DNA of 64,000 nt from Thermoleophilaceae bacterium (GTDB lineage Bacteria > Actinomycetota > Thermoleophilia > Solirubrobacterales > Thermoleophilaceae), in assembly GCA_036377235.1 (NCBI GenBank), contig DASUYU010000080.1:7797-71796 (forward strand), in the 5' to 3' direction. The first letter of the stretch is position 1. Every line of letters starts with the position of its first letter. The translations under genes and the position numbers were made by a program. Below the pieces are notes generated by a model. The model did not search any database. It saw only the letters and a list, made by a program, of their open reading frames with translations, and was not told the DNA's origin. Below are positions 10,996 to 57,786 of this stretch, in pieces.

Positions 10996-10998
10996 CGG

Positions 10999-11021
10999 TC
11001 AATCGGTTGATCAGGGGGATG
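10999..11021. repeat. Copy 2 of the TCAATC-N4-GAT-N1-2-GGGGGATG element
   Basis: See copy 1 at 1650-1671. This copy lies between the divergent EamA and SDR genes. Confidence 0.35.
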
Positions 11022-11072
11022 AGGCGGATTCGTGCCTTCCCGGCCTGGGCGGCACGGGCCAAGCTCGCCCGC

Positions 11073-19207: not shown

Positions 19208-19576
19208 ATGCGCCTCCTCCTCATCGTGTTCGCCGCCGGCCAGCTCCTGCTCGGCCTGCTGCTCTGGCTGACGCCCGGCTTCTTCTACGACGAGATCGGC
19301 CCCTATCCGCCCCGGAACGACCACTACATGGCCGACCTCGCGACGTTCTACCTCGCGCTCGGGGCGGTCGCGCTCGCGTCTGTGTCGCGCGAGCGCTGGC
19401 GCGTGCCCGTCCTCACCCTCGCCCTGATCCAGTACGGCCTGCACTCGCTGAACCACCTGATCGACATCGGCGACTCGCACCCGGGCTGGCTCGGGCCCGC
19501 GAACTTCGTCTCGCTGCTGCTCACGACCGTCCTGCTCGGCTGGATGCTCACGCGCGAGCGCGAGCCGGCGCGATGA
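19208..19576 (+). CDS. Small integral membrane protein (4 predicted TM), hypothetical
   Basis: ATG 19208 within ORF 18674..19576: MRLLLIVFAAGQLLLGLLLWL... An ATGA overlap connects it to the downstream epimerase gene. Confidence 0.6.
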   Translation: MRLLLIVFAAGQLLLGLLLWLTPGFFYDEIGPYPPRNDHYMADLATFYLALGAVALASVSRERWRVPVLTLALIQYGLHSLNHLIDIGDSHPGWLGPANFVSLLLTTVLLGWMLTREREPAR

Positions 19577-20508
19577 GGGTCTTCGTCGCGGGCGCGAGCG
19601 GCGCGATCGGGCGCCCGCTCGTGCCGAAGCTGATCGCCGCCGGTCACGAGGTCACCGGCACCACCCGCTCGGAGGAGCGCGCGGAGGCGATCCGCGCCGC
19701 GGGCGCGACCGCGGCCGTGGTGGACGTGTTCGACGCCGCGAGCCTTCGCGCCGCGGCGGAGGCGGCGCGGCCGGAGGCGCTGGTGCACGAGCTCACCTCG
19801 CTCCCCGATCGGCTCGACTTCCGCAAGGAGGGCATCTACGAGCCGACCAACCGAGTGCGCACGGAGGGCACGCGGATCCTGCTCGAGGCGGCCCGGGCCG
19901 CCGGGGCGCGCCGCTTCGTGTGCCAGAGCATCGCCTTCGCGTACAGGCCCGAGGGCGCGCGCGTGAAGACGGAGGATGACCCGCTGATGCACGACATACC
20001 CGGCAACTTCGGCAGCGGAGTAAGGGCGCTGAACGAGATGGAGGTGGCGGTGCTCGGGGCCGAGGGGCTCGAGGGCGTCGTCCTTCGGTACGGCTTCTTC
20101 TACGGGCCGGGCACCTACTACGCCGAGGACGGCACCACCACCGCCGAGGTGAGGCGGCGGCGCATGCCGGTCGTCGGGAAGGGGACCGGCCTGTTCTCGT
20201 TCGTGCACGTCGACGACGCCGCCGACGCGACGGTGGCGGCCGTCGAGCGCGGCGGGCCCGGCGTCTACAACGTCACCGACGACGAGCCCGCCCCAATGCG
20301 CGAGTGGCTGCCGGTGTTCGCCGACGCCGCGGGCGCGAAGCGGCCGTTCCGCGTGCCGGTGTGGCTCGCGCGATTCGTGGGCGGCCGCGAGGTGCCCACC
20401 TTCGCGCTCGAGCTGCGCGGGGCCTCCAACGAGAAGGCGAAGCGCGAGCTGGGCTGGCAGCCGGCCCACCCCACGTGGCGCACGGGCTTCGCCGAGGCGC
20501 TCGGATGA
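19573..20508 (+). CDS. NAD(P)-dependent epimerase/dehydratase-family (atypical SDR) oxidoreductase
   Basis: MRVFVAGASGAIGRPLVPKLIAAGHEV is a Rossmann motif. VHVDDAAD is also present. Confidence 0.85.
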   Translation: MRVFVAGASGAIGRPLVPKLIAAGHEVTGTTRSEERAEAIRAAGATAAVVDVFDAASLRAAAEAARPEALVHELTSLPDRLDFRKEGIYEPTNRVRTEGTRILLEAARAAGARRFVCQSIAFAYRPEGARVKTEDDPLMHDIPGNFGSGVRALNEMEVAVLGAEGLEGVVLRYGFFYGPGTYYAEDGTTTAEVRRRRMPVVGKGTGLFSFVHVDDAADATVAAVERGGPGVYNVTDDEPAPMREWLPVFADAAGAKRPFRVPVWLARFVGGREVPTFALELRGASNEKAKRELGWQPAHPTWRTGFAEALG

Positions 20509-28948: not shown

Positions 28949-31900
28949 ATGATGGACTTCCGCATATTGGGCTCGCTGGAGGCCGTCGACGGGACGCGAC
29001 GGATCGCGCTCGGCGGCGCGAAGCAGAAGGCCGTCCTGGCGATCCTGCTGCTGCACCGCGACCAGCCGGTGTCCGTGGACCGGCTCGTGGACGAGCTCTG
29101 GGGCGAAGCGCCGCCCGACACAGCCGTTAAGACCGTCCAGGTCTACATCTCGAGGCTTCGTAAGGAGCTCGGGGAGGGGGTCGTGCTGACCCGCGAGGGC
29201 GGCTACGTGCTCGACGTCGAACCCGGCCAGGTGGATGCCGCACGCTTCGAGAGCTTGGCCCGCGAGGGCCGCGAGGCGCTCGAGGGCGGCGACCCAGGGC
29301 GAGCGCGCGCCCTGCTCCAGGAGGCACTCGACATCTGGCGCGGTCCGCCGCTCGCCGACCTGGCCTACGAGCAGTTCGCGCAGTCCGGGATCGCCCGGCT
29401 CGGCGAGCTCCGGCTGCTGGCGCTCGAGGAGCGCATCGAGGCGGACCTGGCGCTCGGCCGCCACTCGGCCCTGGTCCCCGAGCTCGAGACGCTCGTCCGG
29501 GAGCATCCGGACCGGGAGCGGCTTCGAGGGCAGCTCATGCTCGCCCTCTACCGCTCCGGCCGCCAGGCGGACGCACTCGCGAGCTATCAGGACGCGCGCC
29601 GGGCGTTCGCCGAGCGGCTCGGGCTCGAGCCGAGCCGCGAGCTCCAGGCCCTCGAGCAGTCGATCCTCCGGCAGGACCCCGCACTGGACGCCCCCGCCGT
29701 CAGCCGGCGCCCCGCTGCGGCCGGCCGCCAGCGCGGCGCCGGTGTGCTGGTCGCACTCGGCGGCTTGATTCTGCTCCTCGCCGCTGTGGCCGCGATGTTC
29801 GCCACGGGCGACGAGGCGTCGACCCCGGACCGCGCGACGGGCAACTCGCTGGCCGTGATCGACCCCGAGGCGGGCCGGCTCGTCGCGACCATCCCGACCG
29901 GCGTGCGGCCGACCGACGTCGCGCTTGGCGCCGGGTACGTCTGGGTCGCGAACCGCGACGACAACACGGTCACGCAGATCGCGCCGCGCGCCAGGAGGGT
30001 CGTGAGCACGACGTCACCGGGCCTGAGCGTCGCCGGGCTCGCGGCCGACGAGAACGGCGCCTGGGTGGGCGACATCCGCAGGACGAGGCTCGTGAGGCTC
30101 GATCCCGGCTTCCGGTCGGTCGTGCGGTCCGTGCGGATCGCGCCGGTCACCGAGGGATTCGGCGAGCTCGGCGCGAACCCCGTCGCGATCGGCCACGGGG
30201 CGATCTGGACCGGCCGCGCGTTCGGCGCCGTCGCACGCGTGGACGCGGCCAACGAGAAGGTCACCGCGAGGGTCTCGGTCGGGAACGACCCGAGCGCCAT
30301 CGCCACCGGTGCGGGCGGCGTGTGGGTCACGGACGCCAACGACAACACAGTGACGCGCATCGACCCGGCGAGCGAGGGCGCCGTGATCGCGACCACCTCT
30401 GTGGGACAGGGGCCGACCGCCCTGGCGGTGGGGGCGGGAGGTGTGTGGGTGGCGAACACGCAGGACGACACCGTCTCGCGGATCGATCCGAGGACCGCGA
30501 CGGTCACCCACACGATCCCGGTCGGTCGCCGGCCGACCGGCGTCGCGGTCGGCCAGGGAGCGGTATGGGTGGCGAACAGCCTGAGCGGCACGCTCGATCG
30601 CATCGACCCGCGGACGATGCGGGTCGAGTCGACCGTGGAGGTGGGCGCGGCGCCGCAGGGCGTGGCCGTCGGGCACGGCCTCGTGTGGGTGAGCGTTCAG
30701 CGCAGGGCACCCGCGCCACCGCCCCCGCCGGCCAATGCTCCCGGCGGCGTGGCGCGGCTGCTGGTCTCAGGCGGCACCGACACCACCGACCCCGCGCTCC
30801 AGATCGACCTCCAGCGCAACGGGGCCACGTGCGCGATGCTCTACAACTACCCCGACCGGCCGTTCCCCGACGGAGCGCGCCTCCAGCCCGAGGTGGCGAG
30901 CGGGCCGCCGTCCGTGTCAGCCGACAGGCTCAGGTACACGATCCGGATCCGCGAGGGCTTCCGCTTTTCGCCGCCCTCGAACCAGCCGGTCACCGCCGCC
31001 GCGTTCGAGCGCGCGATCGAGCGTGCGGTCGACCCGAAGACGGGGTCGTTCGCGGCCGAGCTCGCGAAGAACGTTGCCCACGTCAGGGCACGGGGCGACA
31101 TGCTGAGGCTCACCCTGCGGAAGCCCGCCCCGAGCATCGTCTCGCTCCTCGCCGCTCCCTACTTCTGCGCCGTGCCGCCCGACACGCCGAGCAGGCCCGA
31201 GGGCGTCGACACCCTGCCCTCCGCCGGGCCCTACTACGTCGCGTCGTTCGTGCCCGGCCGCGCCATCGTGCTGCGGCGGAACCCGAACTACTCGGGGCCG
31301 CGACCTCACCGGCTTGCCGAGATCCGCATCCGCACCGGGGTGTCCCCGGAACGAGCTGTCGGCGCCGTCGAGGCGGGGCGCGCCGATTACGCGGTGCTCA
31401 ACCCGCCCGGCGACCCGTCGGTGTCCCCCGCCACGGAGCGGAGGCTCCTTAGGCGCTACGGACCCGGCAGTGACGCCGCCCGCGCGGGCCGTCAGCGCGT
31501 GTTCACCCAGCCAACGCCCAACATCTACTACTTCGCCTTCAACACGCACCACGGGCCATTCGCCGACGTGCGCCTGCGGAAGGCCGTCAACTTCGCCATG
31601 GACCGGCGTGCGCTCGCGCTCCACACGGGCCTCGGCGAGGACGGGCGGCCCACCGACCAGCACATCCCGCCGGGACTGCCGGGCTTCGAGGACGCCGCGA
31701 TCTACCCGCTCGGCGGGCCCGACCTGGCCGCCGCGCGCCGGCTCGCGGGTACCGCTCACCACCGCGCCGTCCTCTACACGTGCGACTACCCCGCCTGCTC
31801 GCGCCACGGCCAGATATTGAGGTCCAACCTGAGCGCGATCGGGATCGACCTCGAGGTGCGGGAATTCTCGATCCCGGAGCTGTTCGGTCGGCTGCAGAAG

Positions 31901-32236
31901 CCCGGCGAGCCATTCGACATCGGCTATTCGAACTGGTTCTTCGACTACGCCGACCCGTCCAGCTACATCAACGAGCAGTTCGCCACCGACGGCTTCTACC
32001 ACCTGTTCGACGATGCCCACTGGCAGCAGCGAATGGACGCCGCCGCTCGCCTGTCCGGCACGGAGCGGATCCGCGCCTACGCGCGGCTCGACCGCGAGCT
32101 CGCGGCGGACGCGGCGCCCGCCGCGCCCTTCGCGACCGGAACCGCGACCTACTTCCTGTCAGCGCGGATGGGCTGCCAGGTCCTGCACCCCATCTTCGGG
32201 CTGGACCTGGCCGCGCTCTGCATCAAGCGCCGCTAG
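28949..32236 (+). CDS. SARP-family regulator (OmpR/PhoB winged helix + BTAD) with one TM segment, a 7-bladed beta-propeller and a family-5 solute-binding domain
   Basis: N-terminus: [10 protein letters not shown]...[11 protein letters not shown]...VDELWGE...[12 protein letters not shown], then BTAD (DAARFE...[15 protein letters not shown]...LGLEPS). TM segment around 29741-29803. Seven repeats of the type ...GxxPxxVAVGxGxVWVAN..DxTVxRIDP. C-terminal SBP_bac_5-like region (YNYPD..., [16 protein letters not shown]). Confidence 0.85.
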
Positions 32237-33472: not shown

Positions 33473-33745
33473 CTATCGGTCCTTCAGGAGGTGGATGTCG
33501 ACGAGGAACGAGCGCGACGCGGCGACCTCGGACTTCTTGCGCCGCCCGCCGAGGCGGAGCACCGGCGCCTTGGGCCGTCGAAGCACCCGTACGGCGAGGA
33601 AGGTGATCACGCCGAGCAGAAAGCCGCCCGCGGCCGTGGCGACGACCGCCGGCAGGGACACCGGGGGGCGCCTTTCGATGGGGCGTGCCTCGGCGAGGAC
33701 GGGCAGGTTGTCGCTCACGTCGGCCAAGTCGCTCACGTGGGCCAA
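33473..33745 (-). CDS. Small single-TM hypothetical protein
   Basis: 90 aa with a central hydrophobic helix (AVVATAAGGFLLGVITFLAV) followed by a basic stretch. Confidence 0.45.
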   Translation of the reverse strand: MAHVSDLADVSDNLPVLAEARPIERRPPVSLPAVVATAAGGFLLGVITFLAVRVLRRPKAPVLRLGGRRKKSEVAASRSFLVDIHLLKDR

Positions 33746-33749
33746 CGTA

Positions 33750-34874
33750 TCAAAGGGTTCGCTCGTACACGCGGTACTTCTTCACGATCTGGCCGCCCAT
33801 CGCCTCCATGGCGCGGTTCATCGCCTTGTTCGTCTCGAGGATCCAGCCCATCTCGCCCCACTTCACGCGCGTGGTCTCGGCCATGTCGAAGTGCTCTGCG
33901 TACAGCCCGGCCGCCACACCCGTGTGCTGGTAGGCCGGCTTCACGCCGAGAAAGCCGACCCGGCACCGGTCGATCGTGCGCTTCTTCCGCAGGTAGTGCC
34001 ACCAGCCGAGGGGCAGCAGCCGCCCGTTCATCCGCTTCAGCACCTGGTTCACGTCGGGCACCGTGATCGCCATCCCCACGGTCTTCCCACCGGCGTCCTC
34101 GGCGATCATGAACCAGTCGCGGTCGTAGACCAGCTGCAGCTCCTGCGCGTACGCGTCGAGGTCCTCGCCGGAGTACGGCACGAACCCCCAGTTGCGCGAC
34201 CACGCCTCGTTGTAGATCTCCGCGAACGCGTCGAGCTCGCGGCGCAGCCGGAGGCGGCTCATCTTCCGGATCCGGATCCCGTGCTTCGGCTCCAGCTGCT
34301 CGGCGAGGTCCCAGATGATCGGCATGACCTTGTCGCGCCCGACGATGTGGAGCTGCCACATGAAGGCGTCCACCGCCTTCTCCAGCCCGGCCTCCTCGCA
34401 CAGCCGCTGGTAGTACGGCGGGTGCCAGGCCTGGCGGACCATCGGCTCGCGCTCGAAGCCCTCGATCAGCACGCCGCTCTCGTCGTTCATGGTGAAGTCC
34501 ATCGGGCCGACCATCCGGTCGCGGCCGCGCTCGCGGAGCCAGCCGGCAGCGGCGTCGAGGAGCGCCCGCGCGACCTCGGGATCGTCCTCCAGCTCGAGGA
34601 AGCCGAACATCCCCCAGGCGTTCTCGTGGAAGTCGTTGAAGGCGGTGTCGATCTGAGCGCTGATGCGACCGGCGACCCGCCCGTCGCGACGCGCGAGGAA
34701 CAGCTGTGCCTCACCGTGCTTGAAGAATGCGTTGAAGCGAGGGGTGAGAAACAGCCTGCGCTCTATGCGGAGCGGGGGAATCCACTGTTCCTCGTTAGCA
34801 TGCAGCCGGAACGGAAGCTCTATGAACTCGCGCATATCGCCGCGCGAGGCGACGGGCTCCACCTCGACTGACAC
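33750..34874 (-). CDS. Two-lobed GNAT-fold acyltransferase (candidate N-acyltransferase, bCerS-like hypothesis)
   Basis: 374 aa: MREFIELPFRLH..., RISAQID..., then a second lobe with GFLGVKPAYQHTGVAAGLY (acyl-CoA binding-like). GTG start at 34874. It is divergent from the SPT-like gene with only a 15-bp gap. Confidence 0.7.
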   Translation of the reverse strand: MSVEVEPVASRGDMREFIELPFRLHANEEQWIPPLRIERRLFLTPRFNAFFKHGEAQLFLARRDGRVAGRISAQIDTAFNDFHENAWGMFGFLELEDDPEVARALLDAAAGWLRERGRDRMVGPMDFTMNDESGVLIEGFEREPMVRQAWHPPYYQRLCEEAGLEKAVDAFMWQLHIVGRDKVMPIIWDLAEQLEPKHGIRIRKMSRLRLRRELDAFAEIYNEAWSRNWGFVPYSGEDLDAYAQELQLVYDRDWFMIAEDAGGKTVGMAITVPDVNQVLKRMNGRLLPLGWWHYLRKKRTIDRCRVGFLGVKPAYQHTGVAAGLYAEHFDMAETTRVKWGEMGWILETNKAMNRAMEAMGGQIVKKYRVYERTL

Positions 34875-34889
34875 GGCGCGGGACTGTAT

Positions 34890-36140
34890 ATGCCGACTGC
34901 AATCGACCTATTCGAGAAGGCTCGGAGCCACGAGCGCCTGGAGCAGCTCAAGGCCGCGCGGGACCACGGCCTGATGCCGTACTTCCGGGTCCTGGAGGGG
35001 CCCGCCGGCCCGGTCGTCGAGATGGAGGGCAAGCAGCGCATCATGCTGGGCTCGAACAACTACCTCGGGCTCACGGGCGACGCGCGCGTGAAGGACGCGG
35101 CGCGCGAGGCACTCGAGCGCTTCGGCACCGGCCTCACCGGGTCGCGCTTCCTCAACGGCACGCTCTCCCTCCACCTGGAGCTCGAGCGCGAGCTGGCGGA
35201 CTTCATGGGCACCGAGGACGCGCTCGTCTTCACGACGGGCTACCTCGCCAACACCGGCGCCATCGGCACCCTGCTCGGCCCCGGCGACACGGTCATCTGC
35301 GACTCCGGGGACCACGCCTCGATCCTCGACGCCGTGTCGATGTCCCGGGCACGCATCCGGCCGTTCCGCCACAACCGGCTCGACAAGCTCGAGTCGATGC
35401 TGAAGCGCTCCGAGTCGGACGGCGGCGGCGTGCTGGTGGTGGTGGACGGCGTCTTCTCGATGGAGGGCGACCTCTCGCCGATCCCCGACGTGGCGGCGCT
35501 CTGCCGCGAGCACGGCGCGCGGCTGATGGTGGACGAGGCGCACGGAGTGGGCGTGCTGGGCGCGCGCGGCGCCGGCGCCTGCGAGCTCTACGACGCCGAG
35601 GACGAGGTCGACCTGCGCATGGGCACGTTCTCGAAGTCGCTCGCGTCCTGCGGTGGCTTCATCGCGGGCCCCGCCGACGTGATCGACTTCCTGCGGGTGC
35701 AGTCGCGCTCGTTCATGTTCACCGCCGCGGCCGTGCCGGCCGCGATCGGCGCGGCCCTGGGAGCGCTCCGGATCATCCGCTCCGACGAGGGCCCGCAGCT
35801 GATGGCGAAGGTGCTCGCGAACGCCCGCTACCTCCACGACGGCCTCGCCGGCCTCGGCTACGAGGTGATGGAGCCGATCCGCCTGCCGGACGGCTCGGAC
35901 GTGATCACGCCGATCGTCCCGGTCCTGGTGCGCGACGACTGGAAGGCGGTCTTCCTCTGGAAGGCCCTCTACGACGCCGGCGTATACGTGAACGTCGCGA
36001 TCCACCCCGCCGTCCAGCGCGGCGGCGCGCTGCTCCGCACGAGCGTCATGGCGACGCACGAGCGGGACCACCTCGACCGCGCGCTCGAGATCTTCGGTCG
36101 AGTCAAGGGCGAGGTCGAGGCGGCCCAGCCGCCCGTCTGA
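34890..36140 (+). CDS. PLP-dependent alpha-oxoamine synthase, serine-palmitoyltransferase-like
   Basis: Motifs: GSNNYLGL, TGYLANTGAI, DSGDHASILDA, VDEAHGVGVLG, PLP-lysine GTFSKSLASCGGF. From memory, the last is closest to the SPT motif GTFSKSVGTVGGF rather than to BioF, KBL or HemA. Confidence 0.85.
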   Translation: MPTAIDLFEKARSHERLEQLKAARDHGLMPYFRVLEGPAGPVVEMEGKQRIMLGSNNYLGLTGDARVKDAAREALERFGTGLTGSRFLNGTLSLHLELERELADFMGTEDALVFTTGYLANTGAIGTLLGPGDTVICDSGDHASILDAVSMSRARIRPFRHNRLDKLESMLKRSESDGGGVLVVVDGVFSMEGDLSPIPDVAALCREHGARLMVDEAHGVGVLGARGAGACELYDAEDEVDLRMGTFSKSLASCGGFIAGPADVIDFLRVQSRSFMFTAAAVPAAIGAALGALRIIRSDEGPQLMAKVLANARYLHDGLAGLGYEVMEPIRLPDGSDVITPIVPVLVRDDWKAVFLWKALYDAGVYVNVAIHPAVQRGGALLRTSVMATHERDHLDRALEIFGRVKGEVEAAQPPV

Positions 36141-36421: not shown

Positions 36422-39400
36422 CTACTGCACCAGACCGTCCAGGATGCGGTCCATCAGGACCGCGCGGTTGCCCGGTCCGTTCACACCCTCGAGGCCGAAG
36501 CCGAACATCATCCCGAACTTGCTCACGGTGACGGCCGCGTCCTCGATCGAGATCTTGTCCGACTGGATCCAGTCGTCCACGTTCTCCGACGGGCTGCCCG
36601 CGTGCGGGCCTGGGATGGTCCAACCGCCCAGGTCGCCCTGGGTCTCGAACCCGGTCTGGGTCACGTTCGAGCCGGCGGTCACGGTCGTGTCGTCGACCAT
36701 CATGCCGGGCACCACCCTCGTGCCCCAGTCGGTCGCGAACACGATCGAGATCTCCACCTGCTTGCCCTGGTAGGCGCTCAGGTCGATCGACCAGTTCTGC
36801 CAGCCGGACGAGTTGCCGCTCGCGGCGTTCCACTCACCTGGCGGCGACCCGATCGTCCCCACCGGGTCGCAGGTGTTGTCATCCACGCCGGGCCCGTTCT
36901 CGTGCAGCGTCTGGTAGTGCTTCAGGATCGGGTGGAGCTCGTCGCCCCAGCCGTTCGTGCAGCTCGAGCCGGTGTTGTCGCTCGTGTGTCCGTTGGCGTC
37001 CGGGAGCGTCGTGTAGTCGTCCTGGCCGACCGTATGGGCCTCGACGAACACGAAGTCCCAATCGAGCTCCGTGTTGAACGAGGTCCAGAACGACAGGTTC
37101 ATCGGCTGACCGGCCGCGACGTTCGTCAGATCAACGGTCCGCGTCAGGCGCTTGTAGCTCGTGTCCGAGTACTGGCTGAACATGTACTTCGAGCCTCCGT
37201 GCGGCGCGAACGGCGCGCCGCCCGACAGCGACCAGTCGGCCGCCTGATCACTCGCGAACTGCGGGTACTGGGCCTTCGGCAGGATGCTCGAGGTGACCAG
37301 GAAGTTGCCGGTCCCGAGACCGCTACCGCCCTGGTTCTTGGCGCTGCTCGCTCCGTTCAGCTGGAACGTGAGCCCGTCGAGCGGTCCGCCGTCCGTGCCC
37401 GCCACCGGGAAGATGTTCCCGGCCGGGTCCTGCCCGCCTGCGTCGGAGCGCAGATACGCCCCGAGGTAGTACTGGGCGAAATCGTTCGACAGCGGGTTGC
37501 ACTTGCCGCCGTCGGTCGTCTGCAGGTCGCCGTCGCAGGTGGAGTTCGGGAGCCCCTCGGTCGGGTACTCCACGAGATCCCACTCACGCCCGGCGTTCAC
37601 CCCGAGGACCGCCACACGGCCGCCCTCGTTGACGAAGTCACGCACGGACATGATGTTCTCCCACGCCTCCGCATCGGAGACGCCCGGCGTGTTCGTGTTG
37701 CGCGTGACGTTGTCGTTTCCGGTCTCCCAGATCACCTTGTCGTAGTGGCTCAGCACTCCGAGCGGGTCGGGCGCCTTGCGGCCCATGGCGTCCCAGTCGT
37801 ATACGTCGTACGCGACGCCGTTCGCCTGGAGAGCGCTCGTGTAGTAGCTCAGGTAATTGGGCTTGTTGGTCTGGCTGTACGCCGGCAGGTTCGACACGCC
37901 GGTGTAGTCCTCCACCGCGAAGACGAGCACCTTCGCGGTGGACTTCACGCGCACGTTGTACGTGAAGTGCTCGCTCGCGGGCACGTTCGCCGCGGTGAAC
38001 CACACCTCCACGTCGTCGCCCTGGTTCGTGCCGGTCACCTGACCGCGCATGCGGTGGTACCAGTAGTCGCCGTCGTCGCCGTAGCGGTCACCGCCGCCCC
38101 ACTCCGTCGTGCCGGCGGTCTGTGCTGCACCGCCGTTCACGCGGTAGTGCAGCTGGACCGGACCGAGGTCACGCCGGGCGTTCACCTGCACGGTCTGGGG
38201 ATCGCCGTACGAGACGTTGAACTTGTCCACCACGAAGTTCGGCGGATCGAAGGCCGGTGAGAGATGGCTCTTCGGATGCGTCACGTCGTTCGCCGAGCGC
38301 GCGAGGTCGAGCGCGAACTGCACGTGGCGCTCGAACTCGGCCTGGACGTCGGCCTCGTCGTCCTGGAAGGCGAACACGCTGCCGGTCGTGGCCGCGGTGC
38401 CCTCAGGCGTGAACGAGATCGTCCCCGTCTTCTTGTACATGTGGTCGTTCGTGTCGCCGTTCGTCGTGTAGAGATCGGCGCCCACATCCGGGTCGAACGT
38501 CGGGATCCCGGGGTTGTGGTCATCCCCGGCCAGCGCGATCATGAGCGGCTCGTCCGCGGGATGCGTGTCGACCTGCCAGCCGAAGGGCCACAGGATCAGC
38601 TGCGCCGCGGTGTGGTCGTTCTTGTTGTAGGCGAAGTCGACCCTGTCCATCAGCGACATGAACGCCTTCGTCTCAGGCTCGGAGGCGGGTCCGGTGCCGC
38701 GGTACGTCTCAGACGCGGTGTCGGTGTTCGAACCCTCGTCGTCGTAGTTCCAGTGCGTCGGGAAGTTCCGGTTCGGGTCAACGCCGTCGACCGCGGTGAT
38801 CTGGCCGTCGCCGTTGTTGTCGTGCAGGTTCTTCCGCCACAGGCGGTTCGGCGGGTCGAACGTGAAGTCGTACCCGTCGGGGTTGCAGATGATGATGAAC
38901 CACAGCTCGCGGGTGTTCACGAGGTTCGTGAGCTCCGTCGAGGAGACGCCTTGGATCGGCTTGCCATCGGTGCCGACGGCGGTGCCGCTCTTGCCGTAGT
39001 TGTCCACGAACATGCGAAGCGTCCGCCGCTCGGTCTCACCGGCCAGCCATTCGCGTGCGTGCTGGACCGCCGAGTAGAGCACGGCCGGACGGCTGTTGTC
39101 ATTCGTCGTCCCCGCGTCCTTCGTGACCTTGAGCGCGTAGATCGGCTGCCCGCGCAGCGAGTGGCCGATCGTCTCGAGCTTCACGATCCCGGGGTTCTGC
39201 TGGGCGATCTTCTCGATCTGCGTCTTGATGTTCGTCTTGGGGTTGCCCGCCGCGTTCGACAGCTGTACGTCGGTGCGCGCGTACGGACGCCACACCTCCC
39301 AGCCGCCGGACGCCTGGGCGGCCGCGGCCTTCAGCGCGGTGCGCCCGCGCTTGGTGCGGATCAGCTTGGTCCTGATGCCGGCCCTGCGCAGCTTCCTGAC

Positions 39401-39604
39401 CTGCCCCTTCGTCGCGACGATCTCGACGCCCTTGCGGCGCTTGCCCTCCGTCAGGTCGAAGCCGAGCTTCTTCAGCACACGGAGCTGCTTCAGCCCCTTG
39501 GCGTTCGCCTTGTAGGAATTCAAACCGACGCCCGCCGATGCCGGCGCGGCGACGGCGAGGACAAGAAGCGCGGTCAGCGCAACGACTACTCCACGGACCT
39601 TCAT
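36422..39604 (-). CDS. Secreted M14 zinc carboxypeptidase with propeptide and ~650-aa C-terminal extension
   Basis: ATG 39604 follows an AGGGGGGAA SD. Signal peptide MKVRGVVVALTALLVLAVAAPASA. Propeptide-like segment (KQLRVLKKLGFDL). Zn motif VQHAREWLAGE, then NPDGYDF, DPNRNF and a long Asp/Gly/Thr-rich C-terminal region. Confidence 0.88.
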   Translation of the reverse strand: MKVRGVVVALTALLVLAVAAPASAGVGLNSYKANAKGLKQLRVLKKLGFDLTEGKRRKGVEIVATKGQVRKLRRAGIRTKLIRTKRGRTALKAAAAQASGGWEVWRPYARTDVQLSNAAGNPKTNIKTQIEKIAQQNPGIVKLETIGHSLRGQPIYALKVTKDAGTTNDNSRPAVLYSAVQHAREWLAGETERRTLRMFVDNYGKSGTAVGTDGKPIQGVSSTELTNLVNTRELWFIIICNPDGYDFTFDPPNRLWRKNLHDNNGDGQITAVDGVDPNRNFPTHWNYDDEGSNTDTASETYRGTGPASEPETKAFMSLMDRVDFAYNKNDHTAAQLILWPFGWQVDTHPADEPLMIALAGDDHNPGIPTFDPDVGADLYTTNGDTNDHMYKKTGTISFTPEGTAATTGSVFAFQDDEADVQAEFERHVQFALDLARSANDVTHPKSHLSPAFDPPNFVVDKFNVSYGDPQTVQVNARRDLGPVQLHYRVNGGAAQTAGTTEWGGGDRYGDDGDYWYHRMRGQVTGTNQGDDVEVWFTAANVPASEHFTYNVRVKSTAKVLVFAVEDYTGVSNLPAYSQTNKPNYLSYYTSALQANGVAYDVYDWDAMGRKAPDPLGVLSHYDKVIWETGNDNVTRNTNTPGVSDAEAWENIMSVRDFVNEGGRVAVLGVNAGREWDLVEYPTEGLPNSTCDGDLQTTDGGKCNPLSNDFAQYYLGAYLRSDAGGQDPAGNIFPVAGTDGGPLDGLTFQLNGASSAKNQGGSGLGTGNFLVTSSILPKAQYPQFASDQAADWSLSGGAPFAPHGGSKYMFSQYSDTSYKRLTRTVDLTNVAAGQPMNLSFWTSFNTELDWDFVFVEAHTVGQDDYTTLPDANGHTSDNTGSSCTNGWGDELHPILKHYQTLHENGPGVDDNTCDPVGTIGSPPGEWNAASGNSSGWQNWSIDLSAYQGKQVEISIVFATDWGTRVVPGMMVDDTTVTAGSNVTQTGFETQGDLGGWTIPGPHAGSPSENVDDWIQSDKISIEDAAVTVSKFGMMFGFGLEGVNGPGNRAVLMDRILDGLVQ

Positions 39605-39721
39605 CGTGAGGTTCCCCCCTATTGGAACGACTCTCCCCAGGTACTCCCTACCCAATGACCGCGGCAGCGTATCTCTATCGCGCCAAGAGCGTCCACTCAC
39701 CTTCGAAATCGCAGCGGTTTG

Positions 39722-45765: not shown

Positions 45766-46478
45766 CCCACCAGCTTCCTCGTCCTCGCCCGGAGCTGATC
45801 CTCGGTGAGGTTGCCCACGTTCGTGTCGCGCACGCGCCCGTCGCGCGCGAAGACGGTGATCGGACAGACGCCCACGCCATACAGATTCACGACTGCGCCG
45901 TCCGTGTCAACCGCCACCGGCTGATGCCAGCGGCGGGCGATGGCGAGGTTCTTGGTCTCGGTCTTCGAGTCGCCGCTCACGACGGTCACGAAGCGCACGT
46001 TCGGGAACTCGCCGCGGATCCGCTCCACGCGGTCCACCTGCGGCTCGCAGTCGGTCCCGCGCGTGACCACGAACGTCATCACCCGGGCGCCCCGCTCCCT
46101 CGGGCACACCGTCACGATGCCGTTCCCGCGCACCTCGCAGGCCGGCACCGGTCCGGCATTCTTGTTGCAGGGCTTCCTCTGGCACACGTTCGCGTCGCCC
46201 CCCTCCTTGTCGCCGGCGGCGCTCGGAGCCGCGAAGGCCGGCAGCGGCCGCCCCACCTCGGGCCCTCTCAGCCCCTTCCCCTGGTTCGGCAGCGTCTCGG
46301 CGAAGAGCAGGACGCCGAGTCCCATCACGGCCAGGATGCCGACAGCCCAGGCGTACTTGTTCCCCGGCCGCGGCACCTCCGGCCGGCGCGTGGGCTCCGG
46401 GTGCGTGCGGTCCCGCTCGGCGAGCCGCTCCCCGACCGAGAGGTCCTCGAAGCGGTCCCCGTTCTCGTGCTCGGTCAC
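45762..46478 (-). CDS. Membrane-anchored thioredoxin-fold (TlpA/ResA-like) protein with degenerate active site
   Basis: GTG 46478 forms a GTGA overlap with the MMPL stop. TM anchor AWAVGILAVMGLGVLLF, then a RPLPAFAAP...VMTFVVTRGTDCEPQ...PITVFARDGRV thioredoxin-like pattern. CEPQ replaces CxxC, and there is a 4-Cys insertion. Confidence 0.55.
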   Translation of the reverse strand: MTEHENGDRFEDLSVGERLAERDRTHPEPTRRPEVPRPGNKYAWAVGILAVMGLGVLLFAETLPNQGKGLRGPEVGRPLPAFAAPSAAGDKEGGDANVCQRKPCNKNAGPVPACEVRGNGIVTVCPRERGARVMTFVVTRGTDCEPQVDRVERIRGEFPNVRFVTVVSGDSKTETKNLAIARRWHQPVAVDTDGAVVNLYGVGVCPITVFARDGRVRDTNVGNLTEDQLRARTRKLVG

Positions 46479-49105
46479 GGGGCGTCGGGCTGAGCGCGGC
46501 TCGGCCTGATCGCTCCGAGCAGGTCGCGTACGCGGAAGGGTCCGTGCTCCTCGGCCCACAGGAGCGCCGCCGGCAGCACGATCATGACCCCGAGGAGCGA
46601 CACGGTCAGGTCGACGACGGTGACGATCCCGAAGTCGCGCAGCATCCGGATGTCCGAGAAGACGAGCGCGGCGAAGCCGGCGATCGCGGTGATCCCGGAC
46701 GCGAGCACCGCCGCACCGGTGGACGCGTACGTAAGCTCGATCGCCCGCGCCGGGCCGGCGCCGCCGTCGCGCTCCTGGCGATAGCGCGCCGACAGCAGCA
46801 CGCTGAACTCGGTCGAGATCGCGATCACGAGCGCGCTGAGCGTCACGGACATCGGGTTGAGGTCCACCTCGAGCGGCCCCGGGAGGAGACCCAGCACGAA
46901 CACGACCAGCCCCGACCATCCGGTGGCGAGCGCGATCGGGATCAGCGGCACCGCGGCCTCCCGGGCCGACCGGCGCGCGACGAGCAGCACGAGGAACACG
47001 CCGGCCAGCGCCGCGAGCAGCGTGAGCGCGCGGCGCCACGGAGAGGACAGGGCGCCGTTCGCCTCGGCGGCCAGCACGGGCAGGCCGACCACGGAAGCCT
47101 CCACGCCGGGCGGCGGCTTGAGCCGCGACTTGATGTCGTCCACGACGTCCTTCTGGCGGTCGAGCGGCATCAGCCGGATGCCGAACGCCAGGTTGGCGGT
47201 CTTCCGGTCCCTGGTCACCACTCCCTGCGAGAAGTACGCCGGCACGGCGTCGAGCAGCCGCCGCACCGCCGCCTGCCCGGTGCCGGCGGTGCTGAACAGG
47301 TCGGGCAGCGACAGCGCCGGGCACAGCTCCGGCGGGTTGCGCTCCTGCGTGCAGCGCTTCCCGGTCCGGAACCCGTGCGCCTTCAGCACCTGGTCCTGGA
47401 AGCGCGTCATCCAGGCGACCACCGCCGGGTCGGTGATGTCGTCGGCCCGGATCGTCACGTCGATCTCGCCGGAGACGCCGGTCTCCCTCTGCAGCGTGTC
47501 CACGTCCCGGAGCGCGCTCAGATCCTGGGGCACGAGCTCTTGGATGTCGGAGGTCACCGTCGTCTGCGTGTCCAGCGCGAGCCCGACGAGCGCCACGGCG
47601 AGCCCGATGGCGAGCACGCGGCGTGGCCGCGACAGCGAGAACCCGAGCGTGCGCCACGAGCGGTCGGCGAGCCACTCCTTCGCACCCTCCAGCCGGGGAT
47701 GGGTTCGCAGGTTCGCCAGGCGATCGGGCTTCCCGGGCCGCGAGAACCGCGTGAGCGCCGCGAAGCCCGCGCACAGGGCGCAGGCGAGCGCGACGAAGAT
47801 GCCCACCACGAGCAGCGCGCCGAAGCCGCGCACCATCGGCACGGGCGACAGGAGCAGCACGAGGAAGCCGGTGGCCGTGGCCACCCCGGCCGTGAGGATC
47901 GTCGGCCCGCCGCTCGTGACGGCGGCCACGGCCGGCTCGGGCTCGCCGCGCGCCTCCGCCTCGCTGTAGCGCGCCTGGAACTGGATCGCGTAGTCCACCG
48001 CGAGGCCGATCAGGACCGGCAGCGCCGCGATCGACGCCATCGTCAGGTCGCCGCCGGCCAGCGACAGGGCGCCGAAGGTCATGGCGGCCGCCGCGAGCGC
48101 GAGCGCCAGCGGCAGAAGCCGCAGCTTCGCGTTGAAGACGAGCGCCAGCGTGCCGGCCATCAGCACGAGCGCCGCTCCGAGCAGCACGAAGATCGCGCTG
48201 CGCACGGCGTCCGCCAGTCCCGCCGCCACCACCGGCACGCCGGTCACGATGTACTTGGCCCCGCGCTTCGGCTGGAACACCTTCTCCCGTGTCGCGGTCC
48301 GGATCAGGTCGATCGCGTGCTGCTGCTCGGCGTCCGTCAGGTCCGGACGCAGCCGGATCTGCACCAGGGCGGCGTTCTTAGACGGGAACAGGTACGCGAA
48401 GCGCGACTTCGGAATGCCCGTCTGCCCGGTGGTCCGATCGAAGACCAGTGCGGAGACGAAGCTCGGGTCGCTGATGCTCGGCGCGCCGCTGATCCCGTAC
48501 CTGAGCGCCTGCCGGAGGATGTCCGAGACGAACTTCGCCTGTACCGCCTTCGCCGCCGCCTCGGCCAGGCGGCGCTGCTCGGCCGGCGGATCGCCGCGCC
48601 GCTTCGACAGCCGCCGGGCGGCCTCGGCCGCCTGCTGGGCCTGCACCTGCGACTGGCCCGCCTGCCGGCTGAGCTGGTCGCGGATCTGGTTGACGGCCGT
48701 GTTGATGAACGTGCCCGGCCCGTACACCACCTTCGCCGGGTGCAGGTCGGCGATCTGGCGGCACACCGGCGGCAGGCTGCCGAGCCCCTGCTTGTTGTCG
48801 GGCACGTTCCCGCTGAGGCAGCCCTCGAGCCGGATCAGCCGGCCGAGGTCCGACGTGAGAACGGTCTTCTGGACGTCGCCGTGGACCATGACCAGGATCG
48901 CCTCGCCGCCGAAGTCCTGCTTGAACCGCTCGGTGTCCCTGTAGGTATCCGAGCCGCGGTTCACGAGCGTGGACGTGGCCGCGCTCGTGTCGAGCCGGAG
49001 CGCCAGCACGGCGCCGCCCAGAGCGAGCACGGCCGTCACGCCCAGCACCGGCAGCGGATGCCGGCTCACGCCTCCCACGAGGCGTCGTAGCGCGCGCCCG
49101 ATCAC
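46475..49105 (-). CDS. MMPL/RND-superfamily membrane transporter
   Basis: 876 aa with two 6-TM bundles and two large extracytoplasmic loops. N-terminus RHPLPVLGVTAVLALGGAVLALRL. Repeated ...SG.T..AGF..L.FS.. motifs. Confidence 0.88.
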   Translation of the reverse strand: MIGRALRRLVGGVSRHPLPVLGVTAVLALGGAVLALRLDTSAATSTLVNRGSDTYRDTERFKQDFGGEAILVMVHGDVQKTVLTSDLGRLIRLEGCLSGNVPDNKQGLGSLPPVCRQIADLHPAKVVYGPGTFINTAVNQIRDQLSRQAGQSQVQAQQAAEAARRLSKRRGDPPAEQRRLAEAAAKAVQAKFVSDILRQALRYGISGAPSISDPSFVSALVFDRTTGQTGIPKSRFAYLFPSKNAALVQIRLRPDLTDAEQQHAIDLIRTATREKVFQPKRGAKYIVTGVPVVAAGLADAVRSAIFVLLGAALVLMAGTLALVFNAKLRLLPLALALAAAAMTFGALSLAGGDLTMASIAALPVLIGLAVDYAIQFQARYSEAEARGEPEPAVAAVTSGGPTILTAGVATATGFLVLLLSPVPMVRGFGALLVVGIFVALACALCAGFAALTRFSRPGKPDRLANLRTHPRLEGAKEWLADRSWRTLGFSLSRPRRVLAIGLAVALVGLALDTQTTVTSDIQELVPQDLSALRDVDTLQRETGVSGEIDVTIRADDITDPAVVAWMTRFQDQVLKAHGFRTGKRCTQERNPPELCPALSLPDLFSTAGTGQAAVRRLLDAVPAYFSQGVVTRDRKTANLAFGIRLMPLDRQKDVVDDIKSRLKPPPGVEASVVGLPVLAAEANGALSSPWRRALTLLAALAGVFLVLLVARRSAREAAVPLIPIALATGWSGLVVFVLGLLPGPLEVDLNPMSVTLSALVIAISTEFSVLLSARYRQERDGGAGPARAIELTYASTGAAVLASGITAIAGFAALVFSDIRMLRDFGIVTVVDLTVSLLGVMIVLPAALLWAEEHGPFRVRDLLGAIRPSRAQPDAP

Positions 49106-49125
49106 GCCGTCAGCTTAGGAGAGAG

Positions 49126-50625
49126 CTACGGCAGAGGCTGAAGGTGGGGGAAGGCACCGGGCTGGCCGACGAACCGGCCGAGCGGCGCCTGCGGGTCGCA
49201 CGGCGGGGTGGCGTTGCGGTTCTCCGTGCCCCCGAACACGAACTTGTCGATGTCGTCCACGACCTTCTGCGGCAGGAACTCGTTCGCGTCCGGCATGGCC
49301 GGCGACGGGCGCGAGGTGCACAGGTAGCTCCCGTACACCTCGAGATGGCCCTCGGTGCGGAGCTTGTCGTACCCGCCGGGCTCCGTGTACGGGTTGGAGC
49401 GGTTGGTGCCGAGCCGGTACGGATAGCCGGTCATCATCTCCGGGTCCAGCGGACTCGCGACTCGAACGTAGTGCAGGAAGTCCGCCGGGTTGGCGAAGCC
49501 CTGCTCCCTCCCCTGTGTGGCGGCCGAGATGTTGCCGAGGAAGGCGGTGATCTCGCGGTCGTACAGGCCCAGGTAGTCCACGATCGGGGTGAAGTTCTTG
49601 AGCCACGGGTCGAGCCGGCGGAGCAGCGGCTTCGTGTTGTCGAGCACCTCGCCCGTGGCCGGCAGGCCGCGGCGGGACACGCGCACCAACGGGTCGAGGT
49701 TCGTGAACACGCTCTTCAGGTCCGGCGCGAGCGCGTCCAGCTCGCGCAGCGTCGGCGAGAGCGCCCTGGCCGCCGGCCGCAGCTGGGTGATGAGCGGGTT
49801 GGTGTTGTCGGCGAAGCGCGTGAGCCTCGCGGTGGTGGCGCGGCCCTCGCGCAGGAAGGTCGGGAGCACGACGAACGTCTCGGCGAACTGCCGGTCGCGG
49901 CTCGCGATCGCCTGCCAGGTCCGGTTCGAGTTGCTGATGAGGTCGCGCAGCTGGCCCTTGCGCTCGCTGAGCGCGTCGAAGACGTAGCCCGTGTCGCGTA
50001 CGAATCGCTTCGTCGCGCCGCTCTGCTGGCGCAGCACCGCGAGCACTCTGTCCGTGTCCTCGGCGAACGGCGTGAGCAGCCCGAGCGCGTCGTTCAGGTG
50101 CTCGGCGTTGCCCTGAGCCGCTATGCCGGCCTGGTCGAACCAGGTGGAGAAGCGGTTGCGAGTCTGCGGGTCGAATGCGCGCAGGATCTCGTCGAGCTCG
50201 ACCGTGTCGGAGACCTGGCCGGGCGAGAGCTTGCCGCCGTCCTGGATGAACCCCGCGGAGTGGCTGCCGGGCGACAGCTCCACGTACGTCTCGCCGAGCA
50301 GGGTCTTCTGACGCAGGATCGCGCGCGTGTCCTTCGGGATCGGCGCATAGCGCGCGTCGATCTCGAGCACCGCGTCGGTCAGGCCGGTGTGGACATTCGG
50401 CTCCTTCGTCTTCACGCGCCCCACGCGCACGCCGGAGATCCTCACGTCCGCCTCCTGCGCCAGCTGCGTCGCCGAGGGGAAGCCGACGCTCACCCGGTAG
50501 CCCTCCGGCTGAAGCGGCACGGAGCCGCCGAAGCTGAGCCACAGGAACACGAGGATGCCGAAGCACGACAGCGTGAAGGCGACCATCGCGAAGATCCGTG
50601 TGAGGCTTGGCGTCTGCTTGATCAT
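49126..50625 (-). CDS. MCE (MlaD-domain) family protein, sixth of six (MceF position)
   Basis: ATG 50625 (ATGA overlap): MIKQTPSLTRIFAMVAFTLSCFGILVF. MCE core: Y.V.V.F..A..L....DVRISGV.VG.V, LLGETYVELSPGS. Confidence 0.9.
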   Translation of the reverse strand: MIKQTPSLTRIFAMVAFTLSCFGILVFLWLSFGGSVPLQPEGYRVSVGFPSATQLAQEADVRISGVRVGRVKTKEPNVHTGLTDAVLEIDARYAPIPKDTRAILRQKTLLGETYVELSPGSHSAGFIQDGGKLSPGQVSDTVELDEILRAFDPQTRNRFSTWFDQAGIAAQGNAEHLNDALGLLTPFAEDTDRVLAVLRQQSGATKRFVRDTGYVFDALSERKGQLRDLISNSNRTWQAIASRDRQFAETFVVLPTFLREGRATTARLTRFADNTNPLITQLRPAARALSPTLRELDALAPDLKSVFTNLDPLVRVSRRGLPATGEVLDNTKPLLRRLDPWLKNFTPIVDYLGLYDREITAFLGNISAATQGREQGFANPADFLHYVRVASPLDPEMMTGYPYRLGTNRSNPYTEPGGYDKLRTEGHLEVYGSYLCTSRPSPAMPDANEFLPQKVVDDIDKFVFGGTENRNATPPCDPQAPLGRFVGQPGAFPHLQPLP

Positions 50626-51998
50626 GGGACGAAGTTGTCCGGAGGCTGGTTCTGCGGGCAGGCCTGCTGCTCCGGCGGCAGGTTCAGGAGCGTGGCCAGG
50701 AGTCCGAGCTGCGGGTTGCCGAGGATGACCTGCTCGAGGACGTTGTAGTTGTTGCAGTTGACGAGCACGATGCTGCGCCGGATCGGCCCCTGCGCGTCCT
50801 GGAGGTCGAACATCGTGGCGCCGGCGTGCGACGCCCACGCGGCCCAGAAGTTGAACGGGCGCCGCGCGCCGGGCGGGTCGTAGGCGAGCATGTTGAAGAA
50901 GCGGTTGAGCACGCCGAACGTGCGCGACAGCCTCGGCGTGACGACGGCCAGGTCGTTCGTCGCGGAGCGGAGGTCGCGCACCGTGGGCTGCACGTCGCGC
51001 GCAAACGGCCGGATCTGGTCGCGGACGATCGGGGTCGTCTCGCGGAAGAACGGCTGGGTCTTCCGGAGCGCCGGAGCCAGCTCGCGCGCGAACGGCCGCA
51101 GCCGCTCGAGCGCGGGACCGAGCTCCGCCGCCAGCGAGCTCGTCTTCGTGAGCGTCTGGCGAGTCTGCTCGAGCGCGCCGGGGAACAGCCGCACCGCCTC
51201 GCGCAGCGACGACTCCTGCGATGCGAAAGCCTGGAAGTTCGCGTTCGCCGAGTCCACGAGGCCGGCGAGCTGCCGGTCACGGTGGGCCAGCGCCGTCGAC
51301 AGCTCCTGGAAGTTGTGGATCACGTGCCTGAGGTTCTGGCGCCGCTCAGCCAGCTGTCGCGTGATCCGCGCGCCGTAGCGCGCGGTCGGCTCGAAGCGCT
51401 TGAACGTCTCGCGGAGGTCCTGCGCGGCAGTCTGCGAGTAGCGCCTGTCGGCGCCGGTGACCCTGTCGTCGAAGGCCGTGCCGCCCGCGTTCAGCAGGAT
51501 CTGCAGGTACGCGCGCGTGTCGCCGTCGAGCTCCGCGAGGACCTCGTCGCTGTTCACGTCGGGCAGCGTGTTCGCCACCCGCACGCGGCCGCCCTCGGGG
51601 AGGTCGCCCGCGCTCCGCGAGCCCGGGTCGAGCGCCAGGTACATGTCCTTCAGGCCGGTCTTCGGGCGCATCAGGACGGAGGCGTCGCGATAGATCGGCC
51701 GGTACTTCTCCTGGATGTCCATGTCGATGACGGCGATGCCGTCCTCGAGCTTCACGGAGCCCACCTCGCCGACCTTCACGCCGGCGACGTTCACGGTCTG
51801 CCCCTGGCCCGGCACGATGGCCTGGCCGCTCGGCAGCTCCGCCTTCACGACGTAGAAGTCGGTCCCGATCACGGGCACCCACGCCGGCAGGTAGAAGCGC
51901 TGGTTCGACAGGACGTAGCCGACGATCCCGAGCGACCCGACGAGCAGGAACAGGATCGCGATGAACACGCGCGCCTGCTTCTTGATCTGCCGCTTCAC
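50622..51998 (-). CDS. MCE family protein (MceE position)
   Basis: GTG 51998 (GTGA overlap). TM anchor, then YVVKAELPSGQAIVPGQGQTVNVAGVKVGEV and LKDMYLALDPGS. Confidence 0.9.
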   Translation of the reverse strand: MKRQIKKQARVFIAILFLLVGSLGIVGYVLSNQRFYLPAWVPVIGTDFYVVKAELPSGQAIVPGQGQTVNVAGVKVGEVGSVKLEDGIAVIDMDIQEKYRPIYRDASVLMRPKTGLKDMYLALDPGSRSAGDLPEGGRVRVANTLPDVNSDEVLAELDGDTRAYLQILLNAGGTAFDDRVTGADRRYSQTAAQDLRETFKRFEPTARYGARITRQLAERRQNLRHVIHNFQELSTALAHRDRQLAGLVDSANANFQAFASQESSLREAVRLFPGALEQTRQTLTKTSSLAAELGPALERLRPFARELAPALRKTQPFFRETTPIVRDQIRPFARDVQPTVRDLRSATNDLAVVTPRLSRTFGVLNRFFNMLAYDPPGARRPFNFWAAWASHAGATMFDLQDAQGPIRRSIVLVNCNNYNVLEQVILGNPQLGLLATLLNLPPEQQACPQNQPPDNFVP

Positions 51999-57721: not shown

Positions 57722-57786
57722 GCGCGGTCAACCGACCGACGCCTCCCGCAGCGCGCCCCGTGCGCGCCTTACTGCCGTACTGCGTA

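Follow-up and report, generated by a model that had tools for sequence, protein, structure and literature searches.

A divergent gene pair conserved in Thermoleophilia encodes a serine palmitoyltransferase-like enzyme and a bCerS/YghO-family acyltransferase, and may direct the synthesis of N-acylated long-chain bases

A stretch of 64,000 nucleotides from the genome of a Thermoleophilaceae bacterium (assembly GCA_036377235.1, contig DASUYU010000080.1, positions 7,797 to 71,796; in the following called the window) contains two divergently oriented genes for an alpha-oxoamine synthase (AOS) and for an acyltransferase with a tandem-GNAT fold. It was revealed that the AOS groups with the bacterial serine palmitoyltransferases (Spt), that the GNAT protein belongs to the family of the bacterial ceramide synthase bCerS and of YghO, and that both genes are located head-to-head in 79 of 80 Thermoleophilia genomes. 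With a probability of about 65%, the pair would represent the form in which steps one and two of bacterial ceramide biosynthesis occur in Thermoleophilia, with a reductase that is encoded elsewhere or with no reduction step at all. Judged from the sequences, N-acylated long-chain bases are the most likely products.

The window has a G+C content of about 70%. The AOS gene (34890..36140, plus strand) starts with ATG and encodes a pyridoxal phosphate (PLP)-dependent enzyme of 416 aa, and the gene of the putative N-acyltransferase (33750..34874, minus strand) starts with GTG and encodes 374 aa. The start codons are separated by a spacer of 15 nt (34875..34889, plus strand GGCGCGGGACTGTAT). The G+C contents at third codon positions (GC3) of 0.97 and 0.93, respectively, represent a strong coding composition. 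It was thus verified that the two divergent open reading frames (ORFs) have the coordinates, the lengths, and the short gap that had been given in the original prediction, which was made from the sequence alone.

The AOS matched the Pfam family of class I/II aminotransferases (PF00155) at 2e-51. Its translation contains MLGSNNYLGL, SGDHASILD, and GTFSKSLASCGGF, and thereby all motifs on which the proposed similarity to Spt had been based. The motifs of other enzymes, which had been given for comparison, were also correct: the SPT of Sphingomonas paucimobilis contains GTFSKSVGTVGGF, and BioF and KBL of E. coli have a glycine instead of a serine in front of the PLP-binding lysine. Two of the three highest-scoring NCBIfam models were serine palmitoyltransferase models, and Spt-CFB (406 bits) and Spt-BetaP (389 bits) were ahead of KBL (341 bits) and BioF (334 bits). 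The best matches to proteins of solved structure were the SPT of Sphingobacterium multivorum (329 bits), the SPT of S. paucimobilis (277 bits), the Thermus BioF/KBL (264 bits), and further KBLs with at most 244 bits.

For a phylogenetic placement, a neighbor-joining tree was calculated from 20 sequences and 381 alignment columns with 200 bootstraps. The references included bioF and kbl of E. coli, a Ralstonia kbl located beside tdh, bioF genes from the bio operons of Alicyclobacillus and Bacillus, the hemA of Labrenzia, an AOS of Parabacteroides, and the SPTs of S. multivorum and S. paucimobilis. The AOS of the window was recovered in a clade with 98% bootstrap support together with both crystallized SPTs, the enzyme of an E. 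coli locus described below, and the GNAT-linked AOS of Rubrobacter and Streptomyces. All KBL, BioF, and HemA sequences were placed outside of this clade. Tree, best profile matches, and best PDB matches therefore agreed that the enzyme is closer to Spt than to BioF, KBL, or HemA, as had been proposed.

An alignment with the S. multivorum enzyme (SmSPT) revealed that all 17 active-site or substrate-contact residues, i.e. residues that contact PLP or L-serine, are identical in the AOS (N52, G80, S81, R82, F83, L84, N85, H138, S185, D210, A212, H213, T241, S243, K244, M271, and F272; for their roles see PMC10196870). These include the hallmarks of alpha-oxoamine synthases, i.e. the equivalents of K244, T241, H138, D210, and H213. 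KBLs differ from SmSPT at positions 80, 81, 84, 85, 212, and 243. Several of the 17 residues are also present in BioF of the Bacillus type, and therefore the conservation is supportive, but not discriminating when taken alone.

The second protein was less easily classified by domain models. Pfam detected only a weak Acetyltransf_1 signal in its C-terminal half, no NCBIfam model matched, and a sequence search against the PDB yielded weak GNAT matches only. An AlphaFold2 model that was built with 109 diverse homologs had a mean pLDDT of 96 and resembled the tandem-GNAT structures 2wpw (CBG), 7q3a (MAB_4324), 1ozp (MshD), and 5kf1 (GlcN N-acetyltransferase), with TM scores of about 0.6 and E-values from 1e-11 to 1e-14. 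The two-lobed GNAT fold that had been postulated from the sequence was thus substantiated. A Q-x-x-G-x-A motif for acyl-CoA binding (QHTGVA) is present in the C-terminal lobe. The family comprises 7,636 representative homologs at E-values of 1e-3 or below, and close homologs are publicly labeled "GNAT superfamily N-acetyltransferase".

Annotated records of plasmids and chromids were searched for family members by tblastn. The GNAT protein was found to be 34.5% identical to an N-acetyltransferase of S. parapaucimobilis (residues 1-374, E-value 5e-59) and 32.6% identical to YghO of E. coli over its full length (E-value 1e-54). The S. parapaucimobilis gene is the last one in the order NAD(P)H-binding protein (SDR), acyl carrier protein (ACP), AOS (spt), further genes, lptF, lptG, desaturase, N-acetyltransferase. 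The layout is the same as that of Swit_3900 to Swit_3908 in S. wittichii, where Swit_3900 is spt, Swit_3905/3906 are lptF2/lptG2, and Swit_3908 is the ortholog of CC_1154, i.e. bCerS (PMC11324152, table S2B). A 2026 preprint describes the sphingolipid locus of Caulobacter as ccna_01212 (bcerS) to ccna_01226, including ccna_01213/01214 (lptG2, lptF2), and reports a comparable locus in E. coli UTI89. The GNAT protein is therefore a full-length homolog of the Sphingomonas and E. coli proteins at the bCerS position, and the homology to bCerS that had been anticipated was supported by way of these positional orthologs.

The conservation of the pair was analyzed with 80 species-representative genomes of Thermoleophilaceae, Solirubrobacteraceae, and relatives. 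In 79 of them AOS and GNAT are encoded head-to-head, with 69-93% aa identity and mostly with a 15-nt gap. Searches for homologs of each of the two proteins yielded at least about 8,000 significant matches, mostly of the Thermoleophilia type, and the close homologs with a named source were labeled Thermoleophilaceae. Metagenomes were scanned with an alignment of 13 sequences, which replaced the alignment of 109 sequences, because the latter was too diverse. Among 59 informative loci, the GNAT gene had an adjacent divergent AOS gene in 42 cases, an AOS gene at a distance of 1-2 kb in two cases, a co-directional AOS gene in three cases, and no neighboring AOS gene in 12 cases. In a tree of the GNAT proteins, the divergent-pair loci and a few loci with a secondary loss of the neighbor formed a clade with 100% bootstrap support. 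Its members are at least 49% identical to the GNAT protein of the window, and the proteins of proteobacteria, of Streptomyces and Nonomuraea, and of Rubrobacter are located outside of it.

The sequence of the spacer is nearly invariant. Of 67 genome loci for which the N-termini of both proteins could be aligned from residue 1, 57 have a spacer of exactly 15 nt. Read in the orientation of the GNAT gene, positions 2, 3, and 7 do not vary at all, whereas 84-96% of the loci agree at positions 6 and 10-15. GTG is the start codon of the GNAT gene in 55 of 57 loci. The start is preceded by a C-rich stretch without a sequence resembling a Shine-Dalgarno motif (window 34860-34900). A consensus scan revealed no sigma-70-type promoter in the spacer, and scans for promoter and terminator consensus sequences around the pair also yielded nothing. 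As the spacer comprises only 15 nt, either the mRNAs are leaderless or the promoters overlap with the coding region of the respective partner gene.

A third element follows the GNAT gene throughout the Thermoleophilia-type clade. A small ORF (33473..33745, minus strand, GC3 of 0.92) starts 4 nt past the stop codon of the GNAT gene, and it is therefore probably co-transcribed with it. It encodes a protein of about 84-90 aa with one predicted transmembrane helix and a basic C-terminus that could not be assigned to any Pfam family. In 68 genome and 11 metagenome loci, tblastn detected it immediately behind the GNAT gene, even where the GNAT proteins are only about 50% identical. Apart from this ORF, no biosynthetic or export genes are co-conserved with the pair. 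The small membrane protein is probably a part of the module; as a guess, it might be involved, for example, in membrane association or in handling of the product.

The linkage of an Spt-clade AOS with a GNAT protein of this family is not confined to Thermoleophilia, but recurs across four phyla. More distant relatives of the GNAT protein (36-41% identity) are encoded together with an Spt-clade AOS and an extended short-chain dehydrogenase/reductase (SDR) similar to CerR in several lineages. The gene orders are AOS-GNAT-SDR-LTA synthase on plasmid 1 of Rubrobacter radiotolerans, AOS-GNAT-SDR in Streptomyces sp. NBC_01001, a divergent AOS and GNAT followed by SDR and a PAP2-like gene in Nonomuraea gerenzanensis, and an SDR gene divergent from AOS-GNAT in Aureispira. 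In Streptomyces tsukubensis the order is PAP2_3-GNAT-SDR-PKS-AOS, with a type I polyketide synthase (PKS) of 2497 aa and an Spt-clade AOS, which suggests that the product of this cluster is a polyketide-derived, sphingolipid-like compound. The SDRs of these loci and of the fusion locus described below are mutually homologous over their full lengths, with 71-236 bits. The E. coli locus (strain PN43) has the gene order lptF, lptG, AOS, ACP, epimerase, fatty acyl-AMP ligase (FAAL), yghO. Its AOS is named "spt: serine palmitoyltransferase" in RefSeq. Among 5426 complete genomes of E. coli, 4059 cover at least 80% of this sphingolipid-type block of 7.8 kb, and in some genomes just a fragment of yghO is left.

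A metagenomic contig of Gram-negative type encodes a natural AOS::GNAT fusion protein of 780 aa (P0276, L083 10001-12343), and the genes on its two sides encode a CerR-like SDR and a PAP2 protein. Together with the 79 genomes and the 42 metagenome loci, this fusion establishes the co-conservation of the two genes on which the original prediction depended. In another protein, of 784 aa (P0242), the GNAT protein is duplicated in tandem, which results in four GNAT lobes. The mycobacterial BioF2 (Rv0032) may be a related AOS fusion.

Taken together, these results led to the following proposal for the pathway. In the first step, homology and active-site conservation suggest that the soluble PLP enzyme (34890-36140) would catalyze a condensation between L-serine and the thioester of a long-chain acyl group under release of CO2, and the predicted product is a 3-keto long-chain base, i.e. 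3-ketosphinganine. The acyl donor is probably acyl-CoA, because neither an ACP nor an acyl-ACP synthetase is linked to the pair and because the enzyme is most similar to the CoA-using Sphingobacterium type. In the second step, family membership and gene linkage suggest that the tandem-GNAT protein (33750-34874), the predicted N-acyltransferase, would attach another acyl chain to the nitrogen of the long-chain base and would yield 3-oxo-dihydroceramide. This order of steps would match that in Caulobacter, for which acylation prior to reduction has been proposed (PMC11087976). In a third step the keto group would either be reduced by an enzyme that is encoded elsewhere or be retained in the final lipid, because the pair lacks a linked gene for a CerR-type reductase in the Thermoleophilia clade. 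The public labels "BioF" (8-amino-7-oxononanoate synthase) and "GNAT acetyltransferase" are probably wrong for the members of this pair.

Partner genes of known pathways were searched for with CerR, ACP, and FAAL proteins from six spt loci as tblastn queries. None of them had a convincing match anywhere in the 64-kb window, and no PAP2 gene for a head-group step was found in the window. In the genome loci the ACP and FAAL queries detected nothing next to the pair. No lptF2 or lptG2 was present among the Pfam-assigned ORFs within about 7 kb; no sequence search was aimed at these two genes. The list of neighboring genes and the tblastn searches thus confirm the earlier notion that the pair does not adjoin a gene for an ACP, an acyl-CoA ligase, or a CerR-like protein. 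The caveat attached to it, i.e. a product that might not be canonical ceramide, still holds. One protein of the window was considered as a hidden CerR and was rejected as too weakly similar. It is encoded by the only epimerase-family ORF of the window (19573-20508, plus strand; NAD-dependent epimerase/3beta-HSD family), which reached at most 64 bits with CerRs, compared with the 71-236 bits of the CerRs among themselves. The SDR encoded at 10974-11792 is an ordinary protein of the FabG/adh_short type. The epimerase gene, which could at best weakly be proposed to encode the missing reductase, is adjoined by a gene for a PlsC/DAGAT-like acyltransferase (18282-19166, minus strand).

Several observations weigh against the assignment of the pair to ceramide-type synthesis. 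A CerR-like reductase was found neither in the window nor, in 79 genomes and about 45 metagenome loci, at a distance of up to 8 kb from the pair. When the CerR of Nonomuraea was compared with 5.8 billion proteins in a word-prefiltered search, 186 matches were obtained and none of them was labeled Thermoleophilia; the named matches were from Nonomuraea, Streptomyces, Myxococcaceae, and Gemmatimonadota. The ratio of 186 matches for CerR to at least about 8,000 for AOS or GNAT hints at a true absence of CerR, within the limits that are set by the word prefilter. In sphingolipid-producing Bacteroidota, unlinked pathway genes are known (PMC11334938). Furthermore, the AOS did not reach any of the NCBIfam Spt equivalog cut-offs (CFB 406 versus 640 bits, BetaP 389 versus 500 bits, AlphaP 307 versus 670 bits), and its placement was derived from a small neighbor-joining tree with few taxa. 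The link between the GNAT protein and bCerS is indirect, as it was made via positional orthologs and not with the sequence of Caulobacter CCNA_01212.

The association of the two families also has exceptions, and these count on the same side. Twelve of the 59 metagenome GNAT loci lacked a neighboring AOS gene, and at two loci, L099 and L084, the AOS beside the GNAT gene is a KBL. Conversely, the viewed stretch of a plasmid of the Firmicute Priestia megaterium (L183 6001-7215) encodes an Spt-like AOS without a GNAT protein. This AOS is 42.5% identical to that of the window, and its gene is located beside a methyltransferase gene and a membrane acyltransferase gene. The locus L084/L085 (10001-14160), at which a GNAT family member is encoded beside mlaEFD genes, an AOS gene, and an epimerase-family gene, was considered as a further GNAT, AOS, and SDR cluster. 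It was discarded, because the AOS was identified as KBL with 100% bootstrap support and the "epimerase" did not group with the CerRs. Because the partner is a KBL in this case, the GNAT family is not always linked to Spt. Lastly, no literature report of sphingolipids in Thermoleophilia was found.

A tentative extension of the ceramide-type proposal takes the lack of a linked reductase at face value. The divergent reductase-less pair and the small ORF might form a distinct pathway to a 3-oxo N-acyl long-chain base or to another N-acyl amino-ketone lipid, and this pathway might be constitutive in Thermoleophilia and in related uncultured soil Actinomycetota.

It is unlikely, though still to be taken into account, that the same two chemistries, i.e. 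decarboxylative Claisen condensation and N-acylation, lead to a non-sphingolipid N-acyl alpha-amino-ketone that serves as a signal or a specialized metabolite. It could be derived from a different amino acid or could carry a short or unusual acyl chain, and it would be comparable to alaremycin, which is formed with the AOS AlmA and the N-acetyltransferase AlmB, or to autoinducers of the CAI-1 type. Pairs of an AOS and a GNAT protein in Streptomyces do yield products that are not lipids (alaremycin, PMC12006855). The CerR, ACP, AasR, and head-group (PAP2) genes found elsewhere are all missing here, and the sub-threshold Spt scores of the AOS and the separate, fully supported subfamily of the divergent-pair GNATs point in the same direction. 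On the other hand, every serine-contacting residue of SmSPT is retained, and the GNAT protein, with its 374 aa, its tandem fold, and its affiliation with the bCerS/YghO family, is not a small acetyltransferase. The identity of 70-97% at the aa level and the nearly universal presence throughout the class would better fit a core function in the cell envelope, and no genes for biosynthesis or export accompany the pair except for the small membrane ORF.

The two enzymes might also be only loosely coupled, with no linear pathway between them. In this case the GNAT protein would mainly act in salvage or remodeling and would re-acylate free long-chain bases or other amino lipids. The proteobacterial cerS is always located outside of the operon for de novo synthesis, and a role in salvage has been raised (PMC11324152). 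AOS and GNAT are separate divergent transcription units in the window as well, and some members of the GNAT clade have no AOS gene nearby. The invariant 15-nt head-to-head layout, the co-directional AOS-GNAT operons, and the AOS::GNAT fusion argue for a tight coupling and make this explanation very improbable. Lastly, a meaningless adjacency of a housekeeping BioF or KBL and an unrelated acetyltransferase, as the public labels and the missed Spt cut-offs might suggest, has hardly any probability, because the AOS is split from BioF and KBL with 98% support, neither bio genes nor tdh adjoin the pair (genuine bioF and kbl genes are located beside bioA/bioD and tdh), and the pair conservation, the fusion, and the recurrence in four phyla are far beyond chance.

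According to Pfam, the neighbors of the pair encode MsrB, a 274-aa protein without assignment, an M14 peptidase, an EamA transporter, a CGNR regulator, and pyruvate kinase. The M14 gene (36422-39700, minus strand) encodes a secreted protein of 1092 aa, which consists of a zinc carboxypeptidase and C-terminal InhA-like MAM domains, and is conserved in only 14 of 80 related loci. A gene on the other side (28949-32236, plus strand) encodes a protein of 1095 aa in which an OmpR-type winged helix and a BTAD (SARP-like) activator domain are fused to beta-propeller repeats and to an extracellular solute-binding domain of family 5. Such a one-component architecture is unusual, and it was found in only two of 80 related loci. 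About 10 kb from the pair, the region 46475-59593 (minus strand) looks like an actinobacterial mce operon for lipid uptake. A gene for an MmpL-family transporter (46475-49105, minus strand) adjoins a run of genes for five MlaD/Mce-domain proteins (49126-56432); a sixth ORF of this run (56327-57721) was outside of the domain scan, and the next gene (57787-58803) encodes an ABC ATPase.

Research on bacterial sphingolipids has nearly exclusively dealt with Gram-negative bacteria, where these lipids are constituents of the outer membrane. Homologs of Spt and bCerS in some Gram-positive Actinobacteria and the synthesis of ceramide by Streptomyces aurantiacus have been described previously. The monophyletic, reductase-unlinked subfamily with its fixed head-to-head layout and its companion membrane ORF is new, as is the nearly universal presence of the pair in a deep and abundant class of soil bacteria. 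The Thermoleophilia are among the most abundant Actinomycetota in soil and have barely been cultured. The sequence data suggest that they make sphingolipid-like lipids. If true, they would be a major unrecognized bacterial source of sphingoid lipids in soil, and it would become possible to study experimentally what sphingolipids do in monoderm cells. Moreover, a pathway without a linked CerR would inform the dispute on the order of acylation and reduction in bacteria. Should the keto group be retained, the products would be an abundant unrecognized class of membrane lipids in monoderm bacteria without an outer membrane, and a potential soil biomarker.

A comparison with characterized systems revealed both common and deviating features. 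With the Spt-bCerS-CerR pathway of Caulobacter crescentus (CCNA_01220, CCNA_01212, CCNA_01222) and with that of Sphingomonas, the pair shares the Spt-clade AOS and the acyltransferase of the bCerS/YghO family, both of which are predicted to be soluble cytoplasmic proteins. In the window, as in the proteobacterial ceramide pathway, the acyltransferase gene and spt are separate transcription units. In contrast, the pair is found in a monoderm actinobacterial host, its genes are arranged head-to-head with a fixed 15-nt spacer, and the small membrane ORF follows. CerR, AcpR, AasR, or head-group genes are not linked, and lptF2/lptG2 are not among the nearby Pfam-assigned ORFs. The GNAT protein shares only about 34% of its residues with its homologs from Sphingomonas and E. 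coli. At the yghO locus of E. coli, YghO is homologous to the GNAT protein and spt belongs to the same AOS clade, but the genes are organized as FAAL-SDR-ACP-spt together with lptF/lptG paralogs.

The same two protein families occur in the AOS-GNAT-SDR clusters of the actinobacteria Rubrobacter, Streptomyces, Nonomuraea, and S. tsukubensis, in which the GNAT proteins are 37-41% and the AOS 42-46% identical to those of the window. Nonomuraea even has the same divergent layout of AOS and GNAT. All of these clusters encode a CerR-like extended SDR right after the GNAT protein, whereas this slot is occupied by the 90-aa membrane ORF in the Thermoleophilia clade, and they often contain a head-group gene of the PAP2_3 or LTA-synthase type or a PKS. 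The SPT of S. multivorum (PDB 8GUH, 3A2B), a stand-alone enzyme of the acyl-CoA type, is the best match of solved structure to the AOS, with an identity of about 42%. The AOS of the window differs from it by a short insertion (PIRLPDGSD, approximately residues 328-336) and by the sequence in front of the conserved arginine, which is H-P-A-V-Q-R-G-G in the AOS and S-P-A-V-P-A-E-E in SmSPT. The motif around the PLP-binding lysine, GTFSKSLAS, is identical in both enzymes.

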